The position numbers were made by a program, and so were the translations under genes. DNA of 64,000 nucleotides from an uncultured bacterium. Lineage in GTDB: Bacteria > SAR324 > NAC60-12. The notes under the pieces are model-generated. The model was not told where the DNA came from. It searched no databases and saw only the letters and a list, made by a program, of their open reading frames with translations. Positions 27,373 to 49,963 of this stretch are shown piece after piece. Numbering within the stretch: position 1 is the stretch's first letter; every line of letters begins with the position of its first letter. The stretch is from NCBI GenBank assembly GCA_965662235.1, contig CBFIGY010000013.1:11867-75866 (forward strand), read 5' to 3'.

Positions 27373-27378
27373 GTCTCT

Positions 27379-31443: not shown

Positions 31444-33984
31444 TCAGAGGGACTCCTGAGACGGCTGAGAAGGCTCAAACGAGCTCGGTAAGTCATCCAC
31501 CCACGCCTGCAACGCCTCCTGACTGGCCTGTGGGAGCTCAAGAAATCGGTTGACGTTACGGTCCTTGAGCATGTCCAAGGGGACGGTAAACTCGGTGATC
31601 AGACGATCATCGGTGTTGCGTTCCAGGGGGTTCAGCGTCTTGAGGTACCGGACCACTTCATGGTCCCCCATCAGGAACAGCTGAGGTAAGAACGTTTCAG
31701 GCTTCAGGCCAAAACGCTTCAAGGTGGCCGCCACCTGCGGACGGGAGGCACGACGGACCACATCGGCGTACTTGAGTCGGAAGTCGGGAGACTTGGAAGC
31801 AATCATCAGCAGGTCTCCCGGAACCGTCGAGCGCCACAGGGACACCTGGGGAAACACGGAACGGAGCGTGTAGATGAGGATCTTCAGGTTCCGGGGAGAC
31901 ATGTGGTAGGCCGGAAGCCACTGGGCCAGCATGCCGTTGGCCGACAGGCTCTGCTCCACCTGCTCGTACCATTCCAGCGAAAGCAGACTCGACTCTCCCT
32001 TGATCCAGGGATTCGAGGGCTGTGAGATGATCAGGTCAAACGGTTCCTTCTCACTGATGAGGAAGCTCCGGGCATCCCGAGCCACCACCGTGGAGCGGGC
32101 GTCATGAAGAACACCGTGGTTGTAGCGCTCAAAGAAGGAGGCTGCCCGGACCACAGCAGGCGAGATTTCCGCGGTGATCAGGGTTTCTGGATCGTGCAGC
32201 AACGCTGTGCCACTGGTGATGCCACTGCCCAGGCCCACCACAAACACGCGCTCCGGATTGGGGTGCAGGATCATCGGAAGCGAAGCCAACAGGGTCTGGG
32301 TGGGCATGTCGCCACTTCCCCCGGCACTCGCATCCACCTTGCCGTTGATCATCAGGCTCCGTTTGCCCTCGGCACTGTCCATGACCGCCACGGTTGCCAC
32401 TGGGCCCATCTCGTAGTAGACCATCTCAAACTTCCGCATCGCGGCTTCCCACACCAGCGACTGCTTCGCCTGCGACACATCCTCTCGCTCCAGGGCCATC
32501 AGGTTGTAGTTCCGGGAGGAGTCGTAGTACTGGTTGGCATAGAGGTAAACACCACTGCTCATCAACCGAGGCGACCACGGCTGATTCAGCAACAGGCTCA
32601 ACGCCGCCACAAAGGTCGTGGGAATCGCCCACCGGAGCCGAAGCCCCGGGGTCCACTCCGGGTGACTCATGAGGATCGCTAGGCCGATGGCAAAGCTGAT
32701 CACCGCTCCCAGCGTGACGGTGCCCTGCATGCCCATGCCGGGAACCAGGACCACTCCGGCGAGCGCGGCTCCGATCATGGCGCCCATTGTGTTGACGCCG
32801 AACACACGGCCCACGGCCTTGCTCGGAGAACGCGTGTTGGCCCCCAGTGCCGCACAGACCGTGGGGAACATCATTCCCATGGCAATCGTGGGGACCAGCA
32901 TCACCAGTGCGGCCAAAAGGAAACGCAGCACCTGCACGCCTCCCCAGGTGTCCAACAGCTCGCGGTGCAGCGACAGGTACAGGAACGGCAACCGCTCCAT
33001 GAGGATGTTTGCAACGAGCACCGATACGGCCAGCACCAGCTGCAGGAGCACATAGAGGGTCCGGGGCGAAAGACGTTGGTCCAGGTGCCGGTAGGCGTAG
33101 CTCCCAATGGCAATGCCCAGGAGAAACGTTGCCAAAATGGTGGTGAAGGCATACGACGTGGTTCCCAACAGCATGCTCAGGGTCCGGTTCCAGGCAACCT
33201 GGTACCCGAGCGCAACCGCGCCAGAGAGGCCGTAGCTCCAGAAGATGAGCCGAGCATTGAAGGAAAGACGGGGCAGCGGCTCCTCATGCAGCGGCAGGGT
33301 CGAATCGGCTCCCCCCTTGCGCTGGTGCAGCATCCAGAATCCCACCCCAATCAGGAGGTTGAGGGAGGCGGCAATCCAGGTGGTCCCAGAGTGTCCCAAA
33401 AACCGGAGCAGCAGGTACCCGGTCACCAGGGTTCCGGTGAGGGCCCCAAAGGTGTTGGCAGAGTACAGCCGCGCCGTGTTGACCGCCAGCAGACGCTCAG
33501 TCCGGGTCAGGTACCGGCTCATCAGCGGCAGCGTTCCTCCCATCAAGAACGTCGGTGGCGCCAGCAGCAGCACCCCAAAGAAGAAAGGCACCAGGGTCCG
33601 GGACTCGGCCAGGAGCGGAAACTGCTGATACAGCATCGCATGCAGCGCCTGGGCGCCCTCCACCAGAAAGGGGAAGAGGAGGGCGTAACCGCCAATCCCC
33701 CCTTCGAGGAAGGCATACGTTCGAGCCAGCTGAGTTTCCCCCCAGAGGTCCCCCTGCTTCCCAAACCACCAGCCCCCCCAAGCCAGCCCCCCCATGAAGC
33801 CCGTCAGGATCACCGTCACTGCGGTTGTGGACGACCCTAAAAAGTTGGTCAGGGTCCGGATCCAGATCACCTCATACGCGAGGCTGGCGGCCCCGGAACC
33901 AAAGAAGAACAGCGTCAGCCACTGCTCAAGCTTCAGGCCCAAGAGGGTCGCATTGAGGGGGGTGCGGGCGGGGGAGGGTGTCAT
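31444..33984 (-). CDS. fused polytopic membrane domain + spermidine synthase-like (aminopropyltransferase fold) protein
   Basis: About 12 predicted TM helices in the N-terminal 450 aa. C-terminal PABS-like fold: ERVFVVGLGSGITSGTAL...DLIISQPSNPWIKGESSLLSLEWYE. Confidence 0.75.
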   Translation of the reverse strand: MTPSPARTPLNATLLGLKLEQWLTLFFFGSGAASLAYEVIWIRTLTNFLGSSTTAVTVILTGFMGGLAWGGWWFGKQGDLWGETQLARTYAFLEGGIGGYALLFPFLVEGAQALHAMLYQQFPLLAESRTLVPFFFGVLLLAPPTFLMGGTLPLMSRYLTRTERLLAVNTARLYSANTFGALTGTLVTGYLLLRFLGHSGTTWIAASLNLLIGVGFWMLHQRKGGADSTLPLHEEPLPRLSFNARLIFWSYGLSGAVALGYQVAWNRTLSMLLGTTSYAFTTILATFLLGIAIGSYAYRHLDQRLSPRTLYVLLQLVLAVSVLVANILMERLPFLYLSLHRELLDTWGGVQVLRFLLAALVMLVPTIAMGMMFPTVCAALGANTRSPSKAVGRVFGVNTMGAMIGAALAGVVLVPGMGMQGTVTLGAVISFAIGLAILMSHPEWTPGLRLRWAIPTTFVAALSLLLNQPWSPRLMSSGVYLYANQYYDSSRNYNLMALEREDVSQAKQSLVWEAAMRKFEMVYYEMGPVATVAVMDSAEGKRSLMINGKVDASAGGSGDMPTQTLLASLPMILHPNPERVFVVGLGSGITSGTALLHDPETLITAEISPAVVRAASFFERYNHGVLHDARSTVVARDARSFLISEKEPFDLIISQPSNPWIKGESSLLSLEWYEQVEQSLSANGMLAQWLPAYHMSPRNLKILIYTLRSVFPQVSLWRSTVPGDLLMIASKSPDFRLKYADVVRRASRPQVAATLKRFGLKPETFLPQLFLMGDHEVVRYLKTLNPLERNTDDRLITEFTVPLDMLKDRNVNRFLELPQASQEALQAWVDDLPSSFEPSQPSQESL

Positions 33985-34071
33985 GAGAATGCTGTTTCGT
34001 CCGTTTCAGGGAAGGGGGAAAAGGAAAGAGGAGGGAAGCTCCCTCCCCCAGTCAAGGTGCTAGAGGAAGCC

Positions 34072-34581
34072 CTACTGATCTTCAGGCAGGGCGACTTCGC
34101 TGAGGTTCTGAGCCAGGCTCAGTTCATCCAGGGTGAAGATCTTTTCCAGATCCAGGATGGTGATGAAGCGCTCATCGCGCTTTCCCATCCCCCGGATGAA
34201 GTCGATGTGCAGCCGCGTTCCCAGCCGTGGAGGCGGGGTGATGTCCTCGGTGTCGAGGTCGATCACTTCCTGAACCGAGTCGGCCAGGGCTCCCAGCATG
34301 GTGCTTTCGCCGTCAATGGTGACTTCAATGACAATGACGCTGGTGTTGACCGTTTTTTCCACACGGCCGATGCCAAACTTCAGGCGCATGTCCACCACCG
34401 GCACCACGCTGCCCCGGAGGTTGATGATGCCCCGCATGAAGTCCGGCGTTTTCGGCACCTTGGTCACACTGTCAAACTGCAGAACCTCCCGGACGTTGCT
34501 GATGGAAAACGCATAGATTTCCTGGTCCAGCACAAAGGTCAGGTACTGATTGGAGATCGTCGACTGATCTTCTTCGCTCAT
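34072..34581 (-). CDS. cheW: chemotaxis coupling protein CheW
   Basis: YLTFVLDQEIYAFSISNVREVL...RGIINLRGSVVPVVDMRLKFG. Single CheW domain, 169 aa. Confidence 0.9.
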   Translation of the reverse strand: MSEEDQSTISNQYLTFVLDQEIYAFSISNVREVLQFDSVTKVPKTPDFMRGIINLRGSVVPVVDMRLKFGIGRVEKTVNTSVIVIEVTIDGESTMLGALADSVQEVIDLDTEDITPPPRLGTRLHIDFIRGMGKRDERFITILDLEKIFTLDELSLAQNLSEVALPEDQ

Positions 34582-34651: not shown

Positions 34652-36784
34652 TCAGAACCGCTCGAAGTCCTCATCTGCAGAGTCGGCTCCGCCCATGTCG
34701 AGGTCCACTCCACCACTCTTCTGCGATCCGCTCTTCTTTGGAGGAGCAATCTGCTTCGGTTTGTCTCCACCCGACTTGGCGCCACCGCCCTGGCTCTTTG
34801 AGGACGGGTGATGCGGAAGGTGCGCAATCTTGGTGTGCGCTCCCTGTCGGTGGAGGCTATGCCGGGAGCTCTCCAACTTGAAGAACAGCATGGCCTGCTG
34901 CAGCTGCTCGGCCTGAGAGCTCATTTCCTCTGTAGTGGAGGCGAGTTCCTCAGAGGCCGCCGCGTTTTGCTGCACCACCTGGTCCAGCTGCTGGATGGCG
35001 GCATTGATCTGCTGGGATCCGGAGTTCTGCTCCCGGGACGCAGCACTGATTTCCTGGACCAGCTCGGCCGTCCGTTGGATATCAGGTACCAGTTGCTCCA
35101 GCATCTTTCCTGCCGTCTGTGCCACCTCAACGCTGCTGCTGGCCAGGGTGTTGATCTCAGCAGCAGCCGTTTGGCTCCGTTCCGCGAGCTTCCGGACCTC
35201 AGAGGCCACCACGGCAAAGCCCTTGCCATGCTCACCAGCCCGGGCAGCTTCAATGGCCGCGTTGAGGGCCAGCAGGTTGGTCTGCCGGGCGATCTCTTCA
35301 ATGATGGAGATCTTGTCAGCAATCTGGTTCATCGCTGTCACCGTGTTGACCACAGCGTCTCCTCCCTCACGGGCGTCATCCGCCGCCTTGCGGGCAATCT
35401 TCTCCGTCTGCACCGCGTTGTCGGTGTTCTGCTGAATGTTGGACCCCATTTCCTCCATGGAGGAGGAAACTTCCTCGACCGATGAAGCCTGTTCCGAAGC
35501 TCCCTGCGAGAGCTCCTGTGCCGTGGAGCTGACCTCCTGGGCTCCTGAAGCAACGTTGTCCGAGGCGTTCCGGACCGTCTCCACAATCTCACGGAGCCGC
35601 TCCGTCATCTGCTCAATGGACGCCAGGATGCCGGAGTTCCGTTTCCCTGCACGGCCCTGGTTGAAGTCCACATCCAGGTCTCCGCCAGCCACCTTGTCCA
35701 CCATGATCCCAATCTCAGCAGGTTCTCCTCCCACCTGTCGGACAATGGACAGAACCACCCAGAGGGCAATCCCCAGCCCCAGGATCAGGCTCACGACAAT
35801 GAGGATGAGCAGGTTGTTCCGGGTGTCTTCATAGAGGGCGTCACTGGAAAGCTTGATGGTCTCCAAGTCATCTTCGTTCTTCTGAACAATGTTGGCCATG
35901 ATGGCAATCGACTTGTCGTTCAGCTCCCGGCCTTGGCCAACTGAGAGGTTGAAGGCCTTGGTGTTTCCGTTCTCCCGGGTGATGGACTGCACCTCCTGAT
36001 TATGACTGAGGTAGTCCTGATAAAGGGGGCGGAATTCCCGGATGAGGGCCCGTCCCTGATTGGAGGAAACCTGCTCCAGCTCGTTGAGCCGCGACTCCAG
36101 TTCCTTCCGGATTTGCTCGGTCGCTTGGGCGTACTGATCCATGTCCTTGTCGGTGGTGGAGAGAATGACGTTCTTCTCCGCCCGTTGCAGCTCGACTAGG
36201 TTCTGGTTGATGCGAGCCCCCAGCTTGATGCGGTTGACGATCACCCGGAGGGTCTCCAGGTCCAGGGCTTCATCGGCCTGCCGGTCATTGAGGTCCACCA
36301 CCTGCGTCATCACCGCTGCCGCCTTGTCAAAGGCAGCGCGGGAGTCATTTTTGGAAAGCTCCTGTGCCCGGACGTTCGAGTTCAGACGTGAGAAGCTTCG
36401 GACCTCCTGATGGACCTTCATGTAGTCGTTGAAGGCGGTACCAAAGGAGTCCAGCTCTCGCTTTCCGGCTTCATCGGCCAGTTCCCGGAGTTCTCCGCGC
36501 CGCGAGTCCATATCCGCTCGGATGCCATCAATTTCCTTGGCATAGACATCCATGTCCTCCTGGGTCTTGGCCAGGATCATGTTCTTCTCCGCCCGGGAGA
36601 TGGCCACAATGCCCTGGTTGATCCGGGCCGCCAGTTTGATCTTGACGGCTGTGTTATCAGCCACAAAGTTCAGCTGATCATTGACCCCGCCGAGCCCATT
36701 GATTCCCATCCAGGAGCTGATCGCCATCAGGACCAGGATGATGATGAATCCACCGAAGAGCTGCGTCTTCATGTTGATTCGCAT
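34652..36784 (-). CDS. methyl-accepting chemotaxis protein (TM sensor, HAMP, signalling domain, long flexible C-terminal tether)
   Basis: [37 protein letters not shown] (canonical MCP tip). HAMP: [14 protein letters not shown]-terminal Lys/Gly/Ser-rich tether of about 50 aa ending DEDFERF. Confidence 0.9.
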
Positions 36785-36827: not shown

Positions 36828-37118
36828 CTAGCCTCTCACCCAATTCAAGTAACCAAAGCCCCCCTCCTCAAGTGCCTCACCCAAGGCACCAGGCAGGGGT
36901 CGCTCCAGTTGCAGGTCAATGCCCTTGCTGCGGGCGAGCAAGTAAGCGGCATGGATCAGCTGCACGCCCGCAACATCGGCCCGCTCCATGGAACCCCATG
37001 CGATCCGGATCTCCTCCGGATTCTGCTGAAAGGCATTCAGGAGTGTTTGTTGATGACGTGCCACTGTGTGGATGGTCAGGTCCCCCTGCAGCGAGACCGT
37101 CTGCGGATTGGAACTCAT
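36828..37118 (-). CDS. STAS-domain protein (anti-sigma-factor-antagonist-like), translationally coupled to the cheA upstream
   Basis: 96-aa SpoIIAA-like pattern [12 protein letters not shown]...[23 protein letters not shown]. Its start overlaps the stop of the cheA at 37115 by 4 nt. Confidence 0.65.
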
Positions 37119-39322
37119 GACGCCTCCTGATTTTTGGAGCCCCCCGCCTTTTGCGTCAGCGTGAGGACGTCCAAGATGAGGGCGATGCCACCATCGCCCA
37201 AAATCGTTGCCCCGGAGATGCCGACCACGTTCTTGTACAGCGATCCGAGGTTCTTGATCACCGTCTGGTGCTCTCCCACCACGTAGTCGACAACAAAGCC
37301 AATGGGCGCCCCTTCGTCAATGATCACCACCTGCTGAATCGCAGGAGGGGTTCCGGAGACATCAAACATCTCACGGATGTAGAGGTAGGGGACGAGGTCG
37401 TCCCGAACCTGCATGACCTGACCACGGGTGCTGTTTTCAATCTCTGTGGTCCGGAGCTCCACCACCTCGTCCACAGAGGAGAGGGGGATGATGAAGCTCT
37501 CGTCGCCGACCCGTACCAGCATGCCTTCAATGATGGCCAGGGTCAGGGGGAGACGGAACGACAGCTTGGTGCCGGCGCCCATTGTGCTGGAAAGGCTCAC
37601 GTGTCCGCCGAGGGACTCGATGTTGCGCTTGACGACGTCCATGCCCACCCCTCTTCCGGAGAGGCTGCTGACGGACTTGGCGGTTGAGAAGCCCGGCATG
37701 AAGATCAGCTCATGCAGCTCCTGCTCAGTCAGCTCAACATCCGGACGGATGAGGCCCCGTTCAATGGCTTTTTTCTTGATGACCTCGGCGTCCAGCCCCC
37801 CACCGTCATCACTCACCTCAATGACCACCTTGGCCCCCACGTGTCGGGCGCTGAGGTGAATGTGCCCCTGCCGAGGCTTACCCTTCGCTTGGCGGGCTTC
37901 TGGATCCTCAATGCCGTGTCCCATGCTGTTGCGGATGATGTGGACCAGCGGATCATTGAGCTGCTCAATCACGGACTTGTCCAGCTCCGTGTCTTCTCCC
38001 TCCGTCGTCAGCCGAACCTCCTTCCCCAGCTCCGAGGAGAGGTCTCGGATGAGGCGCTTGAAGCGGCCAAACAGGGTTCCGATGGGGAGCATGCGGATGC
38101 CCATGGTCGTGTCCCGCAGATCAGCGGTGAGGCGCTCCACCTCTTCCGAGAGCAGCAGCAGCTCCGAATCGCTGCGGTGCTTGACGGTCTGGCTCAGACG
38201 GGCCTGCACGGTCACCAATTCTCCCACCAGGTCCACCAGCGTGTTGAGCTTCCAGAAGGGCACCCGGATGGTGGAGGTGTTGGCCTGCTCCCGGGTCCGC
38301 TCCTGCTCCCGTCGGTGCTCCTGCTCCCGGTTGCGGAAAAGCTGCTGCTCGTTGAGGGCCGAGACAATGTGTCCTTCATCCACCCCTTGCTCCAGCAGGA
38401 TCTCACCGATGCGGCGCTCATCGTCTTCCTCAATCTCCCGGATCTTCAGATCACAGTCGTCTTCCACAAACATGAAGACGTCCCGGACGGCATTGATGCC
38501 CCGGTCGGTCCGGAGGAGGATCTCCCAGTACACCCGGCACTCCTCGGGGTTGAACTGATCAAGGGGGAGGATCTTTTCGGTTTGGGCCACCACGTTGCCT
38601 TCGCCCAGCTCCAGCAGCTCCCGTAGGAGCAAAAGCGGGTTGGTGCCCCCCTTGAAGAGCTGAGGCTCCGGCTTGAAGCTGATGCGGTAGGTCTGGTTGG
38701 CCTTTTCTTCATCTGGACTTTCGGCGTCCAGGTGTGGCTGGGGCGCTTGCGGTAGGTCTTCAAAGAACCCGTAGCCCAGGTCTTCTTCGGCAGAGGCCGG
38801 TTCTGGTTCTGGGGCGGCCACCGGTTCTGGTGCAGCGGCAGATTCAGAGGCTTCCACAGGAGCCGGAGTCGCCACCGGCTCGGCCACAGGAGCTGGCTTC
38901 GGAGCCGCAGAGGCCGGGACGTCATCGTCAACGCCCTGAGCGAGAAAGTCCCGAAGGCGCTGAATCAAGCCACTCAGAGCCCCCGAGTCACTTTCCTGTC
39001 CCCCTTCCACTTCCTCCAGCATGCGGTTGAGGCGGTCATGAACCTCCAGCGTCAAGCCGATCAGGTTGTGCGTCACCCGGCGGGTGCCGACCCGGACCTG
39101 GTCGAAGATGGTTTCCATCTCATGAGTGAGCGAGGCGATCTTATCGAACCCGAACATGGAGCCCGACCCCTTGAGGGTGTGCATGACGCGGAAGGTCCGG
39201 TTGACCAGTTCCGGATTGTCCGGATCCTCCTCCAACTCCAGGAGCAGCTGCTCCAGCTCGTCGTTCAGCTCACGTGCTTCCTCGAGGAAGACGAGCCGTC
39301 CTCGTTCAAATGCCGAAGCCAT
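37115..39322 (-). CDS. cheA: chemotaxis histidine kinase CheA (P1 HPt, Pro/Ala linker, P3, P4 HATPase, P5 CheW)
   Basis: HPt: FRVMHTLKGSGSMFGF. HATPase: LVHIIRNSMGHGIE...SGRGVGMDVV. C-terminal CheW-like domain. The TAATG stop/start overlaps cheY. Confidence 0.9.
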   Translation of the reverse strand: MASAFERGRLVFLEEARELNDELEQLLLELEEDPDNPELVNRTFRVMHTLKGSGSMFGFDKIASLTHEMETIFDQVRVGTRRVTHNLIGLTLEVHDRLNRMLEEVEGGQESDSGALSGLIQRLRDFLAQGVDDDVPASAAPKPAPVAEPVATPAPVEASESAAAPEPVAAPEPEPASAEEDLGYGFFEDLPQAPQPHLDAESPDEEKANQTYRISFKPEPQLFKGGTNPLLLLRELLELGEGNVVAQTEKILPLDQFNPEECRVYWEILLRTDRGINAVRDVFMFVEDDCDLKIREIEEDDERRIGEILLEQGVDEGHIVSALNEQQLFRNREQEHRREQERTREQANTSTIRVPFWKLNTLVDLVGELVTVQARLSQTVKHRSDSELLLLSEEVERLTADLRDTTMGIRMLPIGTLFGRFKRLIRDLSSELGKEVRLTTEGEDTELDKSVIEQLNDPLVHIIRNSMGHGIEDPEARQAKGKPRQGHIHLSARHVGAKVVIEVSDDGGGLDAEVIKKKAIERGLIRPDVELTEQELHELIFMPGFSTAKSVSSLSGRGVGMDVVKRNIESLGGHVSLSSTMGAGTKLSFRLPLTLAIIEGMLVRVGDESFIIPLSSVDEVVELRTTEIENSTRGQVMQVRDDLVPYLYIREMFDVSGTPPAIQQVVIIDEGAPIGFVVDYVVGEHQTVIKNLGSLYKNVVGISGATILGDGGIALILDVLTLTQKAGGSKNQEAS

Positions 39323-39684
39323 TACCCAAGCACTTTCTTGGTCACCGCGATCAGACGCTGGGGATCAAAGGGTTTGATAATCCATCCGGTGGCGCCGACT
39401 TCCTTGGCCTCTTGCTTCTTGGTGGCTTCAGACTCCGTTGTCAGGACAATCACCGGCACAAACTTGTAGTCAGGGTGCTGCCGCACAGCCTGAATGACTC
39501 CAATGCCGTTGAGGTTGGGCATGTGCAGGTCCGTAATCACCATGTCAATCTGCCCACTCAGCCGGTTGACGGCATCCTGCCCGTCCTCTGCGGCCTCCAC
39601 GGTATAGCCGGCCTCTTCGAGAGTCAGGCGGACCATCTGCCGGACGCTGTTGGAGTCGTCAGCGATGAGGATACGTTTGCTCAT
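39322..39684 (-). CDS. cheY: chemotaxis response regulator CheY
   Basis: MSKRILIADDSNSVR...MVITDLHMPNLNG...VIVLTTES...IIKPF. Confidence 0.9.
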   Translation of the reverse strand: MSKRILIADDSNSVRQMVRLTLEEAGYTVEAAEDGQDAVNRLSGQIDMVITDLHMPNLNGIGVIQAVRQHPDYKFVPVIVLTTESEATKKQEAKEVGATGWIIKPFDPQRLIAVTKKVLG

Positions 39685-39737
39685 ATGCTGGTCTCAGTTA
39701 CTTGATGAAATGCCGCTGATGGACCCGACACGCGGGA

Positions 39738-40619
39738 TCAGCTGTGCCCCGACGGTGGAGTGAGGGCATGAATGAAAGAAGTGGAATCCAGCAGCACCAC
39801 CGCGGGCCTGTTGTCCTTCCGGTTGAAAAAAAGCCCCGGGGTGGGGTTCTGAAACAAGGCCGCCTGCGCCTCCGGAAGCGGTTCCCCGTCTTCCAACGCC
39901 AGCCACTCCAGTCCCAACGGGTGCCCCAGCACCTCCACCTCCTGACCCTCCTGCTGCAGGAGCAGGAGGCTAGGGGGATCGTGAGGACGGGTGGACGTCA
40001 CCCCAAGCACGTCGTGCAGCACAGGGGCCGAGGCGTCTGCAGGTGCAGCGGCCACACGACGCACACAGGCGGCTTCTAGGGCAACCGGAGGTTCTGTGGC
40101 CAGCCGCAGGGCCAGCACCTCCTGTTGCGGAGGACGGGCGTCTGCGTAGTGCGGCACCGTGCGTTGAATTTCCCGAGACTCGGTCTCAAGGGTGAAGAGT
40201 TGTTCCACATTGAGCAGCGGCACCGATTGTTCCCGGTAGCTCAGCATCCGTTGCACCAGCGCGCCCAGCTGCGGGGGAGGGGAGCCCGCCGGTTGCTCGT
40301 CGGGCTCTCCCACGCCAATGACCTGTTCCACCAGCAGCCCCCAGATGAGCCGGTCCTGCTCCACCACCACGACATTCCCATCCAGGTGCTCCTGGGTCAG
40401 TCCCAGCTTGCGCGAGGCCATCACAACCGGAAGCGCCTCGCCCCGGAGGTTCATGACCCCCAGCAGCTCCGGCGGCGCGTTGGGAACCGGTGTCCACGGA
40501 TTGAGGCGCTGCACCTCCAGCACCGATCGACGGGGCAGGGCCATCAGCTTGCCGGCGATGCGGAAGAAGAGCATCTTGCGGGCAGTGGTCTTCTCTTCCA
40601 GCAGGGTTGCACCCATCAC
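39738..40619 (-). CDS. tandem CheW-like domain protein (second domain divergent)
   Basis: N-terminal domain: MLFFRIAGKLMALPRRSVLEV...LLGVMNLRGEALPVV. C-terminal half repeats the pattern: PVLHDVLGVTSTR...VVLLDSTSF. Confidence 0.65.
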   Translation of the reverse strand: MMGATLLEEKTTARKMLFFRIAGKLMALPRRSVLEVQRLNPWTPVPNAPPELLGVMNLRGEALPVVMASRKLGLTQEHLDGNVVVVEQDRLIWGLLVEQVIGVGEPDEQPAGSPPPQLGALVQRMLSYREQSVPLLNVEQLFTLETESREIQRTVPHYADARPPQQEVLALRLATEPPVALEAACVRRVAAAPADASAPVLHDVLGVTSTRPHDPPSLLLLQQEGQEVEVLGHPLGLEWLALEDGEPLPEAQAALFQNPTPGLFFNRKDNRPAVVLLDSTSFIHALTPPSGHS

Positions 40620-42088
40620 GACACCTGATCGCGAAGTTGTGTGAGCTGCTGCTCCGTGCTCGACAGGCGTTCCGACTCAGAGCGCAGCGACTGCTGGACC
40701 TCGCTGAGGCGGTTGCGGTCCTGCCGGACGGACTCCAGGACGGAGTGGGCATCGGCAAGCACCAGTTCCAGGGTCTCGCGGCAGTAGTTGAGGTTTTCCA
40801 ACTGGTGCTGCTCCCGGTCAAGGAGGTGCTCCAGTTCCAAGCTCTGCCCCCGCAGTTCCAGACGGAAGTGCCGAAGCTGCTCCTGAACCTGACCAGCCAC
40901 CGACGACGCATTGCCCGCCAGCTGACGAGCCTCCTGGATGAGGTTGAGGACCGCCTGACGCTCCTCGTCATCCAACGTGTCGGCGCTCCCGCTATGAGCA
41001 GAAAGCAGTTCCGTCTGCACACACGCCTGTAGCCACTCCTCCAGCTCCCCCTCCATGCGCCACGCGTGCTGAATGAGCGCGCCCAGGTCATGCAACAGGG
41101 TCCGGAGGTGCTCATGAGACGCCTGAGCCGAGGTGGCCATGTGGCTGAGGACCACCAAGCTCTGGGTGAGGCGTTTGATCTCATCATCAAGGTGCTTGCG
41201 GGTCTGTTCTGTGACCGCTGACATCGACTGAAACTCCTGCTCCAGCTCCAGCCCCAGTCCACGGGCCCGGAGGATCAGGTCCCGTTGCCGTCCCAATTCC
41301 TGCTGCAGGAGGTGGGTGGTTTCGGTTTCCAGCTGCTCCGCGTTTTGACTTTCTGGCGCCACCAGTGTGAGCCGTTGTGCTTCCCGGAAACGGTCGAGGG
41401 GACGCAGGGCACAGGCTTCTGCCGCCAGTTCCGTGAAGTGCAGCACCTCCTGCTCCTGCCCCCGGAGCACCCGAGAGGCCCAGGACACTCCGTCTCGGAG
41501 CAACAGGACATCGGTCTTGATGCGGATCAGGCCTTCCGGGTGGTAGAGCGAGGCATGGTCCTCCACCTGACGCAACGTCGTGAAGCGCTCCCGCCAGCCG
41601 TTGAGCTGCGAGGCTCCCTGAGTGACCCACTCGGAAAGGGAAAGCAGCATCTGCTCACTCACAGCAGAGAGGGTGGAGGTGACCTCGGCAATGTGCCCTA
41701 GGTTCCGGACACGCTGCTTGCGAGACGTTTCCAGAGCGGCATTCATGGCCAGAAAGCGAACCTCCCCGTCCAGCCGGGACACGGAGGAGTGAAGGTGCTC
41801 CTGCACCTCCTGCCGGATGTCATCCAACGCCTGGGCGCTTTCTGCCACCTTGGTGTGCAGGGCACTGGAGACCTCCATGGCGGAGTGCAGGGCAGAGAGG
41901 TTCTGGGCCAGCTCCTGAGCAAGCCCCCGGAGGCTGTGGAAGCGGGCACCGGTCTCCAGCAGCTCCTGGCTGCTCTGCCGGACCTGCTCCCGAATCGCTT
42001 GGGAGGAGGCTTTGAACTCACGGAGGTCCGCAGTCAGGGTCGTAAGAGACGTCCCCAGCTGCTCGGCCTGCTGGAGGGACTGAGGCAT
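40616..42088 (-). CDS. coiled-coil protein with a degenerate MCP-signalling-tip-like segment (cytoplasmic chemoreceptor-like?)
   Basis: RFLAMNAALETSRKQRVRNLGHIAEVTS, compared with the MCP tip [27 protein letters not shown]. The rest is heptad/Q-L-E rich with no TM segment. Confidence 0.45.
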   Translation of the reverse strand: MPQSLQQAEQLGTSLTTLTADLREFKASSQAIREQVRQSSQELLETGARFHSLRGLAQELAQNLSALHSAMEVSSALHTKVAESAQALDDIRQEVQEHLHSSVSRLDGEVRFLAMNAALETSRKQRVRNLGHIAEVTSTLSAVSEQMLLSLSEWVTQGASQLNGWRERFTTLRQVEDHASLYHPEGLIRIKTDVLLLRDGVSWASRVLRGQEQEVLHFTELAAEACALRPLDRFREAQRLTLVAPESQNAEQLETETTHLLQQELGRQRDLILRARGLGLELEQEFQSMSAVTEQTRKHLDDEIKRLTQSLVVLSHMATSAQASHEHLRTLLHDLGALIQHAWRMEGELEEWLQACVQTELLSAHSGSADTLDDEERQAVLNLIQEARQLAGNASSVAGQVQEQLRHFRLELRGQSLELEHLLDREQHQLENLNYCRETLELVLADAHSVLESVRQDRNRLSEVQQSLRSESERLSSTEQQLTQLRDQVS

Positions 42089-42441
42089 TACGCTGCTCCA
42101 CTCGATTTGAAGTCCCAGATGGCCTGGTCTTCAGTTTCATGAATCTTGATGAACCGGGAGAACCCGCAAATGTCGAGGATCTCGTGCACCTGCTCTCCCA
42201 CCTGCACCAGCGCAAAGCCACGGCCCTGGGCCTTGAGCTGCTTGTAGCAGTCGGCCACCAGGCCAATGCCACTGGAGGTGATGTAGTTCAGCTCACTGCA
42301 GTCGAGGATCAGGCCGGTGCTCTCGGCATCCTCCAGGAAGGTGTTCAGCTCCTCCCGGGTTTCCCGGGAGGCTTCGAGCCCCAGCTGTTCCCCCAGGGTC
42401 ACAACGTGCACAGAGTCAACGGTTCGGTGTTTCAACGGCAT
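42088..42441 (-). CDS. STAS-domain anti-sigma-factor antagonist-like protein, immediately downstream of the second cheA
   Basis: VHVVTLGEQLGLEASRETREEL...LILDCSELNYITSSGIGLVADCY...ALVQVGEQVHEILDICGF (SpoIIAA-like, with the conserved Ser region). Confidence 0.75.
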   Translation of the reverse strand: MPLKHRTVDSVHVVTLGEQLGLEASRETREELNTFLEDAESTGLILDCSELNYITSSGIGLVADCYKQLKAQGRGFALVQVGEQVHEILDICGFSRFIKIHETEDQAIWDFKSSGAA

Positions 42442-42454
42442 CAGGCGGTCTCGG

Positions 42455-44614
42455 TTAAAGTAACAGGCTCAGGTCTTCACCCGTGAGGACCAGTAAGGGG
42501 GCTCCCGTGCCCATAACGATGCACCCTTCAAAGCCTCCCTCTGCCAGGAAGGGGTGCAGGAAGGGACGGATGACGCCCTGTGTGAACTTGAGGATCCGGT
42601 CAGCATGGAAGGCCACCTGCTGCCGACGGGAATCTTCGAGCACCAGGATCACCCCCGTCTGAGGCACCGGAGGCGCCGATCCCAGACCCAATCGGGCCTG
42701 CAGGTCCAGGTAGTGGCAGGTGATGCCCCGGTGCTTGAACACCCCCTGCTCTGGAACCGTGGGGTGCAGCGACAGGTCCACAATCTCCCGGATGACGTCG
42801 TAGCGGATGGCCACGGTTCGGCCGGCCAGTTCCACCACCAGCACCTTGCGGGACTGCAGTCCCAGCCGGAGGGGGCAGAACAGGGTGATCTCAGATCCCT
42901 TGCCCAGCTCAGAGGTAATGCGCACGTCACCACCATGGTGCCGGATGGTGCTGGCCACCACATCCATGCCAACTCCCCGTCCTGACACGTTGGTTACCTT
43001 CTCCGCCATGGAGAATCCAGGCGCCATCAGCAGCTCAAACGCCTCCTCATCGGTGTACTCCGTGTTGGGCTGCGCCAGTCCACGCTCCAGGGCCTTGCTC
43101 AGCACCCGCTGAACGTCAATGCCGTTTCCGTCATCAGAGACCGTGAGGCGCAGCATCTCCGGCTCCAGCCGAGCTGCCACCCGCAGGTTCCCCACTTCTG
43201 ACTTGCCCCGCTGCTTACGGACGTCCGGGGTTTCAATGCCATGGTCAAGGGAGTTCCGGATCAGGTGCACAAACGGGTCACCCAGCAGATCAATGACCGA
43301 GCGGTCCACCTCCAGGTGCTCCCCGCGGAGCTCCAGGGAAACCCGCTTCCCGAGGTCCCGCTCCAGCTGCCGAAGCATCCGGGGCAGGCGGTCAAACAGT
43401 TCACTCAGGCGAGAGGCCCGCAGCTGCTGCAACGACTCCTGCAGGCCACCAAACCGCTGCTGCACCCGCTGCACCGCGCCTCGCATCTCCATCGACATCC
43501 GAGGGTCCAGGCTCTGACGCGTCTCCTGTTCCAAGGCGTCCAGGTGGTTCAACTCCGTCACCACCTCTTCAGCATGGCGGGTGAACTCATTGAGGTCGTC
43601 CATGCTGATGCGCATCATCTCCCGACGCGTGGCCTGTGCCTCGTTGGTGGCCGCAGGAGCGCTCGGTGCTGCCGGGGTCCGAGCCGAGCCAATCCCGAGC
43701 ATCTCCAGAGCAAACTCGCTGGCGTCATGAGACCGGACGTTGCACTTGCGTTCCAGGCCCTCCACCCAAAACTGTTTCCAGAACTGCTCCACCATGTCCG
43801 GAACCAGACGGGCCAAGGCGCTGAGCGAATCCCAGTCCAGCACCGGCTCCGGAGCATCCGGGTAGAGCAGCTTGTCCATCTGGAGCACCAGCGGCTCGTA
43901 GCGTTCAATGCCATCCGGAGGCAGCCCGGCTCCTGCAGCAATCAGCTCCTCCAGTCCAATCAGCACCTCCCGGACTGCGGGGGTGATGTCCTCGCCCTCC
44001 GACGTAAGCACCGACTCCAGCAGCACGCTCCGGACGACCACATCCACCTCCAGGGACTGCTTCTTGGTGAAGTACGTTTCCAGCGTGTCTAGGGCATCCA
44101 GCACCTCCTGAGGCGGAGGCGCCGCGGCGCTGCGGGCCCGTCCCGACTCGGCCTGTTCCACCAGGTTCCGGAGGCGGTCGGCCAGGGGCTCCACCTTCTC
44201 CTCCGAAGGCTCTTCCTTGTTGAGGTTCTGGAGGAAGCGCTCAAAGCGGTCATCCAGCTTCATCTCCTGCTGCCGCATGCGCTCCAGCGCATCCTGAAGC
44301 AGGTCCACGCCCTCCAGCACCCGAGACTGTTCACTGTCCCGTAGCGCCCGGCTCTGGCCCTTGAGCTGCTGCAGGTAGCTTTCAAAGACGTGCGCAAAGG
44401 ACTGCAGGGCCATGAGGTCGAAGAAACCAGCGGTTCCCTTGACGGTGTGGACCCAGCGGAAGATCGCCGCCAGGGTCTCAATCGGCTGTTCCTCGAGTCG
44501 CTCCAGATCCTCCTGAATCAGCTCCAGACCATTGAGGGATTCCTCCACAAAGGCCTGAATGATCTCCGGATCAAAGAAGGATGCGCTGATGTCGGCAGAG
44601 ACGGTTTCGGTCAT
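42455..44614 (-). CDS. cheA: second chemotaxis histidine kinase CheA (start at MTETVSADIS; the upstream part of the ORF is Gly/Pro-rich and non-coding-looking)
   Basis: HPt: FRWVHTVKGTAGFFDL. HATPase: FVHLIRNSLDHGIE...SGRGVGMDVVASTIRHHGG. C-terminal CheW domain. Its start overlaps the stop of the upstream gene by 4 nt. Confidence 0.85.
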   Translation of the reverse strand: MTETVSADISASFFDPEIIQAFVEESLNGLELIQEDLERLEEQPIETLAAIFRWVHTVKGTAGFFDLMALQSFAHVFESYLQQLKGQSRALRDSEQSRVLEGVDLLQDALERMRQQEMKLDDRFERFLQNLNKEEPSEEKVEPLADRLRNLVEQAESGRARSAAAPPPQEVLDALDTLETYFTKKQSLEVDVVVRSVLLESVLTSEGEDITPAVREVLIGLEELIAAGAGLPPDGIERYEPLVLQMDKLLYPDAPEPVLDWDSLSALARLVPDMVEQFWKQFWVEGLERKCNVRSHDASEFALEMLGIGSARTPAAPSAPAATNEAQATRREMMRISMDDLNEFTRHAEEVVTELNHLDALEQETRQSLDPRMSMEMRGAVQRVQQRFGGLQESLQQLRASRLSELFDRLPRMLRQLERDLGKRVSLELRGEHLEVDRSVIDLLGDPFVHLIRNSLDHGIETPDVRKQRGKSEVGNLRVAARLEPEMLRLTVSDDGNGIDVQRVLSKALERGLAQPNTEYTDEEAFELLMAPGFSMAEKVTNVSGRGVGMDVVASTIRHHGGDVRITSELGKGSEITLFCPLRLGLQSRKVLVVELAGRTVAIRYDVIREIVDLSLHPTVPEQGVFKHRGITCHYLDLQARLGLGSAPPVPQTGVILVLEDSRRQQVAFHADRILKFTQGVIRPFLHPFLAEGGFEGCIVMGTGAPLLVLTGEDLSLLL

Positions 44615-45045
44615 GTGCTCCCCTTTTGCACCTCCCGAGCTAGTTGGAGCCAGTAGTTCCGGCGTCGGAGCATGGTCTGGATGGCCTGCCCAAAGGGCTC
44701 CCAGTCCAGTGGAAAGAAAAACAGGTAGTCCGCGCCCTGTCGGTTGCTCCGGGCCACCGCCTCCAGGTCCCGCTCCCGGGCCAGGAAGATGAGGCTGGTG
44801 GAAGGCGCCAGCTGCCGCGCCCGCTTCTTCCACTCGAAGCCATCGAAGCTGCTGCTGTTGATCTCAATGATCAGCAGGTGGCAGGGGTTGCGGCTGAGGA
44901 AGCTCATGAAGCCCTTGGGCGTGTGGTGGTAGATCACCTCAAAGTCCTGCTTGAAGAAGGACTTCAGCTCCTCATTGGTCTCGGTTTCGGCCAGGGTGGC
45001 CACCACAAACGAGGGTTGAGGGGCGTCACTCATGCGTCCTCCCAT
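44611..45045 (-). CDS. pseudo-receiver (degenerate REC-fold) protein
   Basis: Beta-alpha pattern of a receiver (FVVATLAE ... HLLIIEINSS ... SLIFLA ... DYLFFFPLDWEPF), but the acidic pocket, phospho-Asp and Lys are replaced. Confidence 0.5.
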   Translation of the reverse strand: MGGRMSDAPQPSFVVATLAETETNEELKSFFKQDFEVIYHHTPKGFMSFLSRNPCHLLIIEINSSSFDGFEWKKRARQLAPSTSLIFLARERDLEAVARSNRQGADYLFFFPLDWEPFGQAIQTMLRRRNYWLQLAREVQKGST

Positions 45046-45911
45046 CGCTTGGTCATGGTGATGCGGTTGCCGCTGTCGCTCCAGTCCACCGAACTCATGA
45101 TGCCCTTGATGAGCAGCAGCCCCCGCCCATGCGTCTGGGTCGGACTGGCGTTGACGTCACCGCGGTAGGCAGAGGGGTCAAATCCGGGGCCTTCATCTTC
45201 CAAGGAGACCCGAAGCATCTCAGCATCCATGTCCACCTGAATCCGGACCTGCCGGTCCTTGTAGTCAGGATCCTCTGAGCGGGTTCCCACCATGGCTTCA
45301 AACCGTTCCCACGACTGGTCCTTGAGGGAGGACGGGAGTTCCAGGTTCCCGTGGATGATGGAGTTCGTGAGCGACTCCTGCAGGCAGAGGTCAATGAGGT
45401 GCACCGGGACCTGGTTGCTTTCACAGAGGGGACGGTAGAGGGACCGGAGCGTCTGCACCGTGGCGGCAATCAGGTCCGGACGACTGGGCACCAGCAGGCG
45501 CAGCTTGAGGTTGCTGACGGCCAACAGCTCCGTCTGGCGGCTGCTTTCCTGCTGCCGCACCTGCAGGCGCTCCAACGCTGACTGGAGGACATGGAAGGCA
45601 AAGGGCTTGAGGATCAGGTCCACGGCGCCGAGCTTCAGGGCTTCCACAGAAGTCTGCACGTCACCGTGCCCGGTGATGAGCAGCGTCGGAGTGTTCATGC
45701 GCGACCGGACCATGCGTCGCAGCAGCTCCATGCCGTCCATGACGGGCATGCGGATGTCTGAAAGCACGGCGTCAAAAGGAGGCCCAGCTTTCAGCAGCGC
45801 CAGGGCTTCTTCGCCATTGCCTGCAGACGCCACTTCATAATCGGCATCCTCCAGCAACTCTACCAATGAGTCCCGCCATCCGGGCTCATCGTCCACCACC
45901 AGCAGTCTCAT
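45030..45911 (-). CDS. response-regulator receiver fused to an RsbW/RsbT-like GHKL serine kinase (anti-sigma-factor-type HATPase_c_2)
   Basis: REC: MRLLVVDDEPGWR...VLSDIRMPVMDG...LLITGHGD...LILKPF. C-terminus: LCLQESLTNSIIHGNLE...DEGPGFDP...GRGLLLIKGIMSSVDW. Confidence 0.7.
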   Translation of the reverse strand: MRLLVVDDEPGWRDSLVELLEDADYEVASAGNGEEALALLKAGPPFDAVLSDIRMPVMDGMELLRRMVRSRMNTPTLLITGHGDVQTSVEALKLGAVDLILKPFAFHVLQSALERLQVRQQESSRQTELLAVSNLKLRLLVPSRPDLIAATVQTLRSLYRPLCESNQVPVHLIDLCLQESLTNSIIHGNLELPSSLKDQSWERFEAMVGTRSEDPDYKDRQVRIQVDMDAEMLRVSLEDEGPGFDPSAYRGDVNASPTQTHGRGLLLIKGIMSSVDWSDSGNRITMTKRWEDA

Positions 45912-47110
45912 GAGACCCTCTCCTCCTGAGTCGCATGCACCTCAATGCCCATCAAGGTTGCATCGTCATCAAAGCGGTCCTTCCCCGCAAAGTTCAGCAC
46001 CGACTGCATGATCTTTTGAGTCATGTTTGAAAGGTTCTCCTCCCGGAGGCTAGAGAGGGTCTTGCGCAAACGGGGCTCCCCAAACAGCTCGGAGCTGCGG
46101 CTCTTGCCCCAGGCCGGATTGGTCTCCAGCAGCGCATCCGTGTAGATCAGCACCCGGTCCCCGGGACTCAGCTGCACCTTTCCCTCGCCATACTGCACGA
46201 GGTCACTGGGCAGCACCCCCAGCACCACTCCATCGGTGGAGAGGCTGGTGATCTCCTCGGTCCCCTGACGGATCAGGTACGCCGGAGGATGCCCCGCACA
46301 GGTGTAGGTCAATTCCTGCGACTGCTCATCAAAGATCATGTAAAAGAGGCTCGCGAAGCGTCCCGGAGGCATGTAGTCATTGAGGGTGTCGTTGATCCGG
46401 GAAATCGCTTCCTGTGTGGAACTAAGCCCGCCTCCCACCTGCCGGAAGGTGAGGCGCAGCATCATGGCAATCATCGAAGCCGACAAGCCGTGCCCGGTGA
46501 CATCCGCCACCACCATGCCAATGAGGTGATCGTTGAGGCGCAGAACGTCATAGAAGTCTCCACCCACCTCATCCATGGGAATGAACTCCGTCTGAATCTG
46601 CAGGCAGGTAGAAACATCTAGGCTATGTGGAAGCAGAAGCTCCTGAGCCACCCGGGCCTGTTCCAGGTCGTAGCGACTCTGCTTCTGCAACGAAATCAGG
46701 TGCTCATTGAGCATCTCCACCATCTCTAGGTGCCCGTTCATCCGCCGGTTTTCCTGCAGCAGGGAGTGGTGCTCCAAGAAGAGCGCAATCAGTTCATCAG
46801 CAAACTGCTCCGGATGCTCCTGCAGCAGCGAGGTCTGCAACAGCCCCGGCTGACTTCCCTCCGAGAGGGCACCAATCGCAACCGCCAGTGTTTCCGGGAA
46901 CTTTTGCTGAAAACGCTGCAGCTCCTCCGCGTTGGTTCCAATGATCAGCGTCGGAGAAGCCCCTCCTGGACGAAGTGCCCCCAGGGCCTGTTCCACCTCC
47001 TGATAGAGTTCAACCGTGAAGCACCGGCCCAGGTGACGCTCCAGCGTCGCCAGTTCGGGAGTGGAGCCAAGGAGGAGGATCAGGTTGGGTTTGATGGTCT
47101 GTGGACTCAT
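45908..47110 (-). CDS. PP2C-family serine phosphatase (SpoIIE/RsbU-like) with degenerate N-terminal receiver-like domain
   Basis: GGDFYDVLRLNDHLIGMVVADVTGHGLSASMIAMM...CAGHPPAYLIR...GDRVLIYTDALLE. The N-terminal 120 aa are REC-like (LILLLGSTPE...TLIIGTNA) without the conserved Asp. Confidence 0.8.
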   Translation of the reverse strand: MSPQTIKPNLILLLGSTPELATLERHLGRCFTVELYQEVEQALGALRPGGASPTLIIGTNAEELQRFQQKFPETLAVAIGALSEGSQPGLLQTSLLQEHPEQFADELIALFLEHHSLLQENRRMNGHLEMVEMLNEHLISLQKQSRYDLEQARVAQELLLPHSLDVSTCLQIQTEFIPMDEVGGDFYDVLRLNDHLIGMVVADVTGHGLSASMIAMMLRLTFRQVGGGLSSTQEAISRINDTLNDYMPPGRFASLFYMIFDEQSQELTYTCAGHPPAYLIRQGTEEITSLSTDGVVLGVLPSDLVQYGEGKVQLSPGDRVLIYTDALLETNPAWGKSRSSELFGEPRLRKTLSSLREENLSNMTQKIMQSVLNFAGKDRFDDDATLMGIEVHATQEERVS

Positions 47111-47113
47111 GAG

Positions 47114-47458
47114 TCAGCTGGCAATGCGGTCGAGGGCAACGTCAAGGGAGGGGGTGACCTGGAGGAAGCGGTCGATCTGCGTCAACGCGATCGTCTGCCG
47201 GACCACTTCATTGGGGCCACTGAGGAAGAAGGGAACCCGCTGGTTGAGGGAGAGTTTTGCCCCATACAGGATGATGCCAATGCCCGAGGAGTCGAGAAAG
47301 TCCAGGCTTTCCAGGTCCAGGACCAGGCCCGAAGGGGTCTCCTTCAGCAACGACTCCAGCTGCTGCTTGAGCTTGGACACATTGGAACTCTCCAAGGTTC
47401 CGGACAGGGTGACCACCTGGACGGATCCGTTCTTTGTAACATCAATCTGTAGGAACAC
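47114..47458 (-). CDS. STAS-domain anti-sigma-factor antagonist (first gene of the operon, directly upstream of the PP2C phosphatase)
   Basis: VQVVTLSGTLESSNVSKLKQQL...LVLDLESLDFLDSSGIGIILYGAKL (SpoIIAA-like with the phosphorylatable Ser region DSSGIG). Confidence 0.8.
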   Translation of the reverse strand: MFLQIDVTKNGSVQVVTLSGTLESSNVSKLKQQLESLLKETPSGLVLDLESLDFLDSSGIGIILYGAKLSLNQRVPFFLSGPNEVVRQTIALTQIDRFLQVTPSLDVALDRIAS

Positions 47459-47667
47459 GGCTGCTTCTTCTTTAATGATCGAAAAAGATGCAATTTATTT
47501 TTATTTTTTGATTTTTTCCCTGAATTTCAGGAAAGAGCGCTATCATACGTATCCAATTTATTATCTCAAGATGATATTTCTCAGGAAGGAGACGGAAGCG
47601 GACGGGTCAGGACCCTTGTGGTGGGGAAAGCATTGGGGGCTTTTTCAGGGGAGGCTGGCAACGGTGG
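47459..47667. promoter_or_regulatory. AT-rich intergenic promoter region for the STAS-PP2C-kinase-che string; contains perfect palindrome CCTGAA-T-TTCAGG at 47519-47531
   Basis: About 209 bp, much lower in GC than the surrounding sequence (ttttattttttgattttttccctgaatttcaggaaagag). It is the only sizeable gap in the 30-kb minus-strand gene string. Confidence 0.35.
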
Positions 47668-49567: not shown

Positions 49568-49963
49568 TCAAGCGCGCGCCTGCAAGGCGGCCTGGAGGGT
49601 TTCTGTCAGCACATTGAAGCCGACCGGTTTACGGAGCAGGGCAAAGGCTCCCAGACTGAGGCAGTGTTGCTCAACGCGAGCATCTAAGTGCCCGGAGTGG
49701 ATGACAACCCGAGAGGCCTTCACGGTCTCGGGCGTAAGGGATTCCAGCACTTCAATCCCGGTGAGGACCGGCATGTTGATGTCCAACAGAACCAGCTGAG
49801 GAGGCTGCTGCTGACGGAGGCACTGCAACGCTTCTCCCCCATCCTGGGCCTCAATCACCTGATAGTCCTCTTCTAGGAGCATCACCATGGCTTCCCTGAG
49901 GTCGTGATTGTCTTCGGCGATCAGAAGCGTCGCCTTGGAATTCAGTGAGTCAGGATCGGTCAT
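49568..49963 (-). CDS. single-domain response regulator
   Basis: ATLLIAEDNHDLRE...LVLLDINMPVLTG...VVIHSGH...LRKPV. Confidence 0.8.
   Translation of the reverse strand: MTDPDSLNSKATLLIAEDNHDLREAMVMLLEEDYQVIEAQDGGEALQCLRQQQPPQLVLLDINMPVLTGIEVLESLTPETVKASRVVIHSGHLDARVEQHCLSLGAFALLRKPVGFNVLTETLQAALQARA

Follow-up and report, generated by a model that had tools for sequence, protein, structure and literature searches.

The window analysed here, a stretch of 64,000 nucleotides from an uncultured bacterium of the SAR324 lineage, carries what is probably one chemosensory operon, with parts like those of F7 stage 1 and Shewanella Che1-type clusters, that would join a chemosensory (che) pathway to a partner switch. 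Two CheA-type kinases, CheA-1 and CheA-2, are encoded in it, each next to a small STAS-domain gene (STAS-1 and STAS-2, respectively), and we conclude that the origins of the two pairs differ and that their roles probably do as well. In the explanation that best fits the sequence comparisons, and which we regard as probable though by no means assured, STAS-1 is a CheS-like accessory of CheA-1, STAS-2 and a third protein, STAS-3, belong to the partner switch, and CheA-2 is an insertion. An earlier sequence-only reading had taken both pairs for stoichiometric complexes of a full P1-P5 kinase with its own STAS protein, an unusual chemotaxis accessory that would link the array directly to the partner switch. 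Its coordinates for both kinase genes and both small genes, all on the minus strand, were correct (Table 1), as was the assignment of the large proteins to the CheA-type kinases and of the small ones to STAS (matches to PF13466 and PF01740). The 1:1 pairing, however, is not strict, as a third STAS gene, that of STAS-3 (47114-47458), lies in the same cluster.

STAS-1 consists of a single STAS domain and no other (PF13466 spanning residues 8-87 at 47.5 bits, where the cut-off is 29.2). Where DSSGxG would be expected it reads ADVAGVQL and is thus without the phosphorylatable Ser, and with 17.3 bits on the anti-sigma-factor antagonist model TIGR00377 (cut-off 53.45) it falls outside that family. 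Nothing therefore ties STAS-1 to the partner switch. No relative of STAS-1 was found in the PDB, nor a CheS model in NCBIfam. Since word-indexed homologue searches returned almost nothing, namely only STAS-1 itself for STAS-1 and a single protein for STAS-2 (P0124, 59% identity), the family was studied on the open reading frames (ORFs) of fetched loci with local phmmer and hmmsearch. A CheA-1 scan of one genome per species returned 27 loci, among them 25 (L005-L029) with a full or partial CheA, and a small STAS ORF lies near cheA in 20 of these 25, in five or more phyla. The 20 loci come from Desulfobacterota, Bacteroidota, Acidobacteriota, Melioribacteraceae and Spirochaeta, and their usual order is STAS-cheY-cheA, preceded by a receptor-like protein of ~600 amino acids (aa). 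Six Rhizobiaceae loci on plasmids or chromids likewise have STAS-cheY-cheA, with 4-nt overlaps, and phmmer from STAS-1 directly recovers five of these six STAS proteins. In Vibrio aquimaris (L044) the order is STAS-CheY-CheA-CheW-CheW-MCP-CheR-CheD-CheB-MCP-STAS-(REC-PP2C-HATPase), where MCP stands for methyl-accepting chemotaxis protein and REC for receiver domain; the first STAS is STAS-1-like (VDAAGIQLL) and the second, adjoining the REC-PP2C-HATPase protein, is STAS-2-like (IDSAGLG). A profile of 22 che-linked STAS proteins, which includes the six from Rhizobiaceae and no sequence from the window or from the two syntenic loci described below (L005 and L036), scored 57.6 bits for STAS-1, 18.2 for STAS-2 and 13.8 for STAS-3.

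In three genomes, those of the window, L005 and L036, STAS-1 overlaps cheA-1 and lies downstream of it. In the window the CheA-1 stop and the STAS-1 start share ATGA, the 4-nt overlap that had already been read, with AGGAGG 7 nt upstream, and in L036 the overlap is 8 nt; the stop codon of CheY and the start codon of CheA-1 overlap by 1 nt. The translational coupling that had been claimed for each pair is thus supported for CheA-1 and STAS-1.

As described for S. meliloti and A. fabrum (Dogra et al. 2012, cited in PMC12654446 and PMC4214558), CheS is a STAS-only protein that forms complexes with CheA and increases CheY1 binding ~100-fold; according to the same reports S. meliloti CheS co-purifies with CheA, and the documented gene order is mcp-cheS-cheY1-cheA. 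STAS-1 resembles CheS as a single STAS domain of ~100 aa that is encoded within one gene of cheA and near cheY and is translationally coupled, and the Rhizobiaceae che-linked STAS proteins fit the same profile as STAS-1, in a comparison that does not include the S. meliloti and A. fabrum CheS. It differs in gene order, which is cheY-cheA-STAS here, and because the window has one single-domain CheY, the phosphate-sink role of CheS with two CheYs may not apply. STAS-1 is best read, from its sequence and context, as a CheS-like accessory whose gene has shifted from before cheY to behind cheA. By analogy with S. meliloti CheS, it would be made by translational coupling with CheA-1, bind CheA-1, perhaps at or near the divergent P2 domain described next, and tune phosphotransfer from CheA-1 to CheY or other receivers. 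Given the conserved linkage and the CheS precedent, a CheA-STAS complex is therefore plausible for this pair, and the accessory, far from being unusual, is of a widespread and already described type.

Pfam finds P1, P3, P4 and P5 in CheA-1, and residues 208-301 (38420-38700 of the window) are without a Pfam or PDB match. When residues ~208-301 of related CheAs are made into a profile, it finds the PF07194 P2 domain in two proteins, P0083 (at 168-253, where Pfam places P2 at 170-249) and P0079. As these matches stand at the correct positions, CheA-1 has all five domains, its P2 being a divergent one, in agreement with the P1-P5 architecture first read for it, and the alternative that residues 208-301 form a novel domain was rejected. 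The divergent P2 is too far from PF07194 to be recognised by Pfam, yet it is kept from Vibrio and Rhizobiaceae to Bacteroidota. Of the 32 loci with a divergent-P2 CheA, 29 have a STAS-1-family gene at most one gene away from cheA, as against none of the nine CheAs without this P2, in a sample that was seeded by CheA-1 similarity and whose loci are not phylogenetically independent. The loci that combine the two belong to Desulfobacterota, Bacteroidota, Acidobacteriota, Rhizobiaceae and Vibrio. Judged from this co-occurrence, the divergent P2 is perhaps the docking region for STAS-1.

The co-occurrence also bears on a different role for STAS-1, that of a non-phosphorylatable antagonist or decoy which binds the RsbW-like kinase or another STAS client and forms a constitutive arm of the switch, near cheA by chance. 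A review notes that a protein with only a STAS domain usually antagonises an RsbW-like kinase, and the description of F7 stage 1 clusters names the equivalent gene an anti-sigma-factor antagonist (PMC7184735). We nevertheless consider such a role unlikely, as the family occurs beside cheY-cheA without partner-switch genes in the fetched flanks, for example in the Rhizobiaceae and Bacteroidota loci, as its presence tracks the P2 type of CheA, and as CheS is reported to bind CheA experimentally.

STAS-2 and STAS-3 are proteins of another kind, and both pass the TIGR00377 cut-off of 53.45 (71.1 and 72.9 bits). Alignment to 1TH8 and 1TID places Ser56 of STAS-2 at the SpoIIAA phospho-Ser, STAS-3 keeps the phosphorylatable Ser within DSSGIG, and with a cognate HATPase_c_2 kinase and a SpoIIE PP2C phosphatase encoded alongside, the two are antagonists of the SpoIIAA/RsbV type. 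The partner-switch module comprises STAS-3, the PP2C, the REC-RsbW-like kinase, a pseudo-receiver and STAS-2. The phospho-Ser of its antagonists, its HATPase_c_2 kinase and its SpoIIE-type PP2C are shared with the SpoIIAA/SpoIIAB/SpoIIE and RsbV/RsbW/RsbU switches, from which it differs in having a kinase with an N-terminal REC, two antagonists and no adjacent sigma factor gene. In the translation, this REC has the canonical DD / D / T / K receiver residues. The REC-RsbW-like kinase would phosphorylate the conserved Ser of STAS-2 and STAS-3, and the PP2C would remove the phosphate. By analogy with what has been proposed for CrsR/CrsA, the REC would be the likely entry for a phosphoryl signal from a CheA. 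The final target of the switch (a sigma factor or other) is probably encoded outside the window; no sigma factor gene was found among the signalling genes at 13.5-25.8 kb of the window. A functional link between the che system and the partner switch is likely here, and it would more probably run via this REC than via a CheA-STAS complex.

The origin of the second pair is best seen by comparison with the two syntenic loci. In L005, from a Deltaproteobacteria metagenome-assembled genome with a CheA-1 of 88% identity, every gene of the cluster is present and the gene order is unchanged. L036, from a moderately related genome, has the order STAS3-PP2C-REC/RsbW-pREC-STAS2-CheY-CheA1-STAS1-MCP-CheW-CheR-CheB-CheD-600-aa protein (X658)-cyclase/PilZ, pREC being the pseudo-receiver, with proteins 47-78% identical to those of the window (PP2C 52%, REC-RsbW-like kinase 59%, CheY 78%) and 32% for X658; the STAS-3 orthologue is the first module gene in both L005 and L036. 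CheA-2, a 490-aa ORF and CheW293 (a 293-aa CheW-domain protein) are absent from the syntenic L036 cluster, where the pseudo-receiver has no CheA-2 next to it and the STAS-2 homologue, P0124, sits between the pseudo-receiver and cheY. STAS-2 thus travels with the PP2C/RsbW-like module and not with CheA-2.

CheA-2 itself is, by its sequence, a member of a rare and divergent CheA lineage. Pfam finds P1, P4 and P5; neither Pfam nor the divergent-P2 profile detects a P2, and H-kinase_dim (P3) gives no match even at E = 10, with only the second P3 helix aligning to CheA-1. The P1-P5 architecture that had been read for both kinases accordingly does not extend to CheA-2, which has no P2 and a degenerate P3. 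A word search over 5.8 billion proteins gave relatives at 38% or higher full-length identity in only five clusters, P0003 (93%), P0004-P0006 (38-41%) and P0007, the last partial. A first metagenome scan with CheA-2 as sole query returned no locus, and a second with an alignment as query returned one, L045. Among the four loci that encode other CheAs of the lineage (L032, L033, L034/L035 and L045) none has a STAS gene beside this CheA, and three (L032, L034/L035 and L045) have a homologue of the pseudo-receiver directly upstream of it. Judged from these comparisons, the conserved partner that truly belongs to CheA-2 seems to be the pseudo-receiver. In the window, L032 (9573-12166), L034 (9589-12163) and L045 (1-2362), a pseudo-receiver of ~140 aa precedes and overlaps the CheA-2-lineage gene, in contexts that differ. 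The CheA-2 relatives sit among ParA-like and HSP70/MreB-like genes. Their clusters in L032 and L033 encode a second, longer CheA (864-867 aa), a ParA-like ATPase, an HSP70/MreB-like protein, a HEAT-repeat protein, a multi-CheW protein and a CheW-REC protein, and in L033/L036 this cluster divergently adjoins the partner-switch/che cluster.

The CheA-2/STAS-2 adjacency is seen only in the window and its close relative L005. The L036 cluster without CheA-2 and the four CheA-2-lineage loci without STAS together mark it as a lineage-specific insertion, so that the conservation of CheA-STAS adjacency, surveyed in related genomes, extends across phyla for the first pair and no further than L005 for the second, the lack of conservation that the earlier reading had named as evidence against itself. 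CheA-2 would have been inserted into the module in the lineage of the window, at a pseudo-receiver that was already part of it (as in L036), with the orphan coiled-coil protein of the 490-aa ORF and the CheW-domain protein entering on the other side of STAS-2. It would then stand beside STAS-2 through rearrangement and not through an ancient pairing.

The junctions in this part of the cluster are tight. The pseudo-receiver and CheA-2 genes overlap in ATGA, and the ATG at 44614 is the right start of CheA-2, both because it shares these bases with the preceding stop codon and because homologues have lengths of 717-721 aa. The gap between CheA-2 and STAS-2 is 13 nt, not 14 as had been read, and holds no clear Shine-Dalgarno sequence. 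The coupling of STAS-2 to the gene that follows it is no looser: STAS-2 and the 490-aa ORF overlap by 1 nt (TAATG), and the latter overlaps the CheW293 gene by 4 nt.

This packing is the ground for an arrangement in which STAS-2 would have joined CheA-2, the orphan 490-aa protein and CheW293 in a new signalling complex of the cytoplasm, the state of the array directly controlling the availability or phosphorylation of the antagonist. The string of CheA-2, 13 nt, STAS-2, 1-nt overlap, 490-aa ORF, 4-nt overlap and CheW293 is kept in L005, and the 490-aa protein is all-helical, with a stretch, LAMNAALETSR, that resembles the chemoreceptor tip motif. We give this arrangement little credence, as the resemblance is not significant, the structure model is of low confidence, the arrangement is confined to one clade, and the 490-aa protein has no relatives. 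Equally doubtful, on the same sequence features, is the mechanism that would go with it, namely that the P2-less CheA-2 was spliced directly after the pseudo-receiver and that the tight coupling marks a new kinase complex holding or gating STAS-2. If true, it would be a direct structural bridge from a chemosensory-type array to sigma-factor control.

The 490-aa ORF occurs in L005 and not in L036. Searched exhaustively with HMMER, 1.84 billion representative proteins yielded no relative at E <= 0.001, and BLASTP gave no significant similarity to the MCP of the window or to the 600-aa tail protein of the cluster. A single-sequence AlphaFold2 model is all-helical with a pLDDT of 58.7, too low for a fold search. 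With no significant BLASTP match, no HMMER relatives and a low-confidence model, the idea that this protein is a degenerate chemoreceptor was set aside as speculation.

The original proposal, in which either CheA is bound 1:1 by the STAS protein encoded beside it and arrays are thereby tethered to the partner switch, draws on the tight spacing in both pairs, their retention in L005 and the CheA-CheS complex reported from S. meliloti, and is improbable because STAS-1 and STAS-2 come from different subfamilies, STAS-1 is without the Ser needed for a kinase/phosphatase switch, STAS-2 of L036 is beside no CheA-2 while the four other CheA-2-lineage loci have no STAS, and CheA-2 is without the P2 that co-occurs with the che-linked STAS family. 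For CheA-2 and STAS-2, a stoichiometric complex is therefore unsupported.

Several points weigh against the combination of a CheS-like STAS-1, partner-switch STAS-2 and STAS-3 and an inserted CheA-2 that we prefer. The positional equivalence of STAS-1 rests on family membership, because its gene follows cheA and does not precede cheY. Its Rhizobiaceae relatives are encoded in secondary che clusters (STAS-CheY-CheA-CheW-MCP) and are not the S. meliloti or A. fabrum CheS itself, and the loci were gathered by CheA-1 similarity and are not phylogenetically independent. In both the window and L005, a dCache histidine kinase and a receiver are encoded just upstream, an input that the REC-RsbW-like kinase may use. 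Lastly, two genomes have the STAS-2 gene closely wedged between those of CheA-2 and the orphan protein, which makes a newly evolved physical association of STAS-2 possible.

As a whole, the cluster is of a known kind, in a rearranged form, and links between che systems and partner switches have already been published for Shewanella CrsR/CrsA and for F7 stage 1. The gene orders published for F classes include STAS-only genes. Ortega et al. 2020 (PMC7184735) describe the order of F7 'stage 1' clusters, including an antagonist beside cheY-cheA; the parts are an antagonist, cheY, cheA, two cheW, an Aer2-like receptor, cheR, cheD and cheB, and further a McpA-like receptor, a second antagonist and a Ser phosphatase. 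The gene order of the Vibrio aquimaris locus is exactly this one. The window has all part types except the Aer2-like receptor, including a STAS-1-type antagonist by cheY-cheA, an antagonist of the SpoIIAA type, and both a Ser phosphatase and an anti-sigma-type kinase. It differs in carrying its partner-switch module at the 5' end and not at the 3' end, with PP2C and REC-kinase as separate genes and with two antagonists of the SpoIIAA type, in having STAS-1 behind cheA, and in having a 4HB transmembrane MCP as receptor. Its extra parts are CheA-2, the orphan ORF, CheW293, a spermidine-synthase-like membrane protein and a REC-REC-HATPase protein. At the Che1 locus of Shewanella oneidensis, as described in PMC9855816, the CrsR/CrsA partner switch controls RpoS and an input from CheA has been proposed. 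The two clusters share a REC-containing anti-sigma-type kinase/phosphatase and a STAS antagonist inside a che cluster. CrsR is one REC-PP2C-HATPase protein, whose functions the window splits over two genes; the Shewanella module has no second embedded CheA, and the window no identifiable sigma factor target.

The signalling cluster forms one operon-like run on the minus strand, from ~50 kb down to ~24 kb of the window (Table 1; domains were called by Pfam scans of the window ORFs, and junctions were read from the sequence). The promoter-like site upstream of STAS-3 is a possible start of the transcription unit, and a consensus scan found no minus-strand terminator-like site between it and the hairpin at cheW. 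The spermidine-synthase-domain and REC-REC-HATPase genes are kept in L005 and absent from the L036 cluster, and a REC-REC-HisKA-HATPase paralogue lies at 22808-24301. The cluster ends, in the window as in L036, with the ~600-aa helical protein without Pfam domain. Weakly similar proteins of ~600 aa are encoded directly upstream of STAS-cheY-cheA in loci from other phyla (L007, L009, L011, L013, L016 and L029), a position that is the receptor-gene (icpA/mcp) place in alpha-proteobacterial che operons. The 412-aa ORF, which overlaps the end of the 600-aa tail gene, has class III nucleotide-cyclase-like motifs; its 411-aa equivalent in L036 (L036 20270-20345) is annotated as Guanylate_cyc + PilZ, and both tail genes follow cheD there. 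A second protein of this kind, REC-cyclase-TPR-PilZ, is encoded 8 kb away at 16214-17938. From its motifs and position, the cyclase-like protein may be an output of the che pathway.

Table 1. Features of the signalling cluster in 5' to 3' order of the minus strand, with positions in the window.
Feature	Position	Strand	Evidence
Receiver	49568-49963	minus	Pfam
dCache histidine kinase	47668-49518	minus	Pfam
Promoter-like site TTGAGA-16-TATGAT upstream of STAS-3	47542..47569	minus	Consensus match only, 10/12 positions
STAS-3, SpoIIAA-type anti-sigma-factor antagonist, DSSGIG motif	47114-47458	minus	Pfam STAS 66.9 bits; TIGR00377 72.9 bits
PP2C/SpoIIE-type Ser phosphatase (RsbU-like), N-terminal ~190 aa uncharacterised	45908-47110	minus	Pfam SpoIIE 8.6e-44
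REC + RsbW/SpoIIAB-like Ser kinase (HATPase_c_2)	45030-45911	minus	Pfam Response_reg 2.2e-29, HATPase_c_2 2.3e-16
Pseudo-receiver, 144 aa	44611-45045	minus	Weak Pfam Response_reg match; Glu replaces phospho-Asp
CheA-2, 719 aa	42455-44614	minus	Pfam P1, P4, P5; degenerate P3
STAS-2, 117 aa, SpoIIAA-type	42088-42441	minus	Pfam STAS PF01740 69.5 bits, 2.4e-19
Orphan all-helical 490-aa ORF	40616-42088	minus	No Pfam family above cut-off
CheW293, 293 aa, CheW domain at 16-143 and unknown C-terminal half	39738-40619	minus	Pfam CheW 9.5e-27
CheY	39322-39684	minus	Pfam Response_reg 1.5e-27
CheA-1, 735 aa: P1, divergent P2, P3, P4, P5	37115-39322	minus	Pfam and P2 profile
STAS-1, 96 aa, che-linked STAS_2 protein	36828-37118	minus	Pfam STAS_2 PF13466
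Transmembrane 4HB methyl-accepting chemoreceptor	34652-36784	minus	Pfam
CheW	34072-34581	minus	Pfam
Terminator-like hairpin and T-run just 3' of cheW	34027-34049	minus	Consensus match only
846-aa membrane protein with spermidine-synthase domain	31444-33984	minus	
CheR	30580-31419	minus	Pfam
REC-REC-HATPase protein, without HisKA domain	29117-30583	minus	Pfam
CheB	28021-29100	minus	Pfam
CheD	27379-27999	minus	Pfam
~600-aa helical protein without Pfam domain	25578-27380 or longer	minus	
412-aa cyclase-like protein	24356-25594	minus	Motifs and synteny

If the explanation that we prefer is true, the cluster would provide a Desulfobacterota-type example both for CheS-like CheA accessories and for che clusters that are wired to partner switches. 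Its main use would be comparative, as the che-linked STAS family, from Rhizobiaceae and Vibrio to Bacteroidota and Acidobacteriota, tracks one type of P2, and this gives a concrete and testable guess for the docking place of CheS-like proteins. The insertion of CheA-2 next to STAS-2 would further represent a natural rewiring experiment, for which no new mechanism is required.

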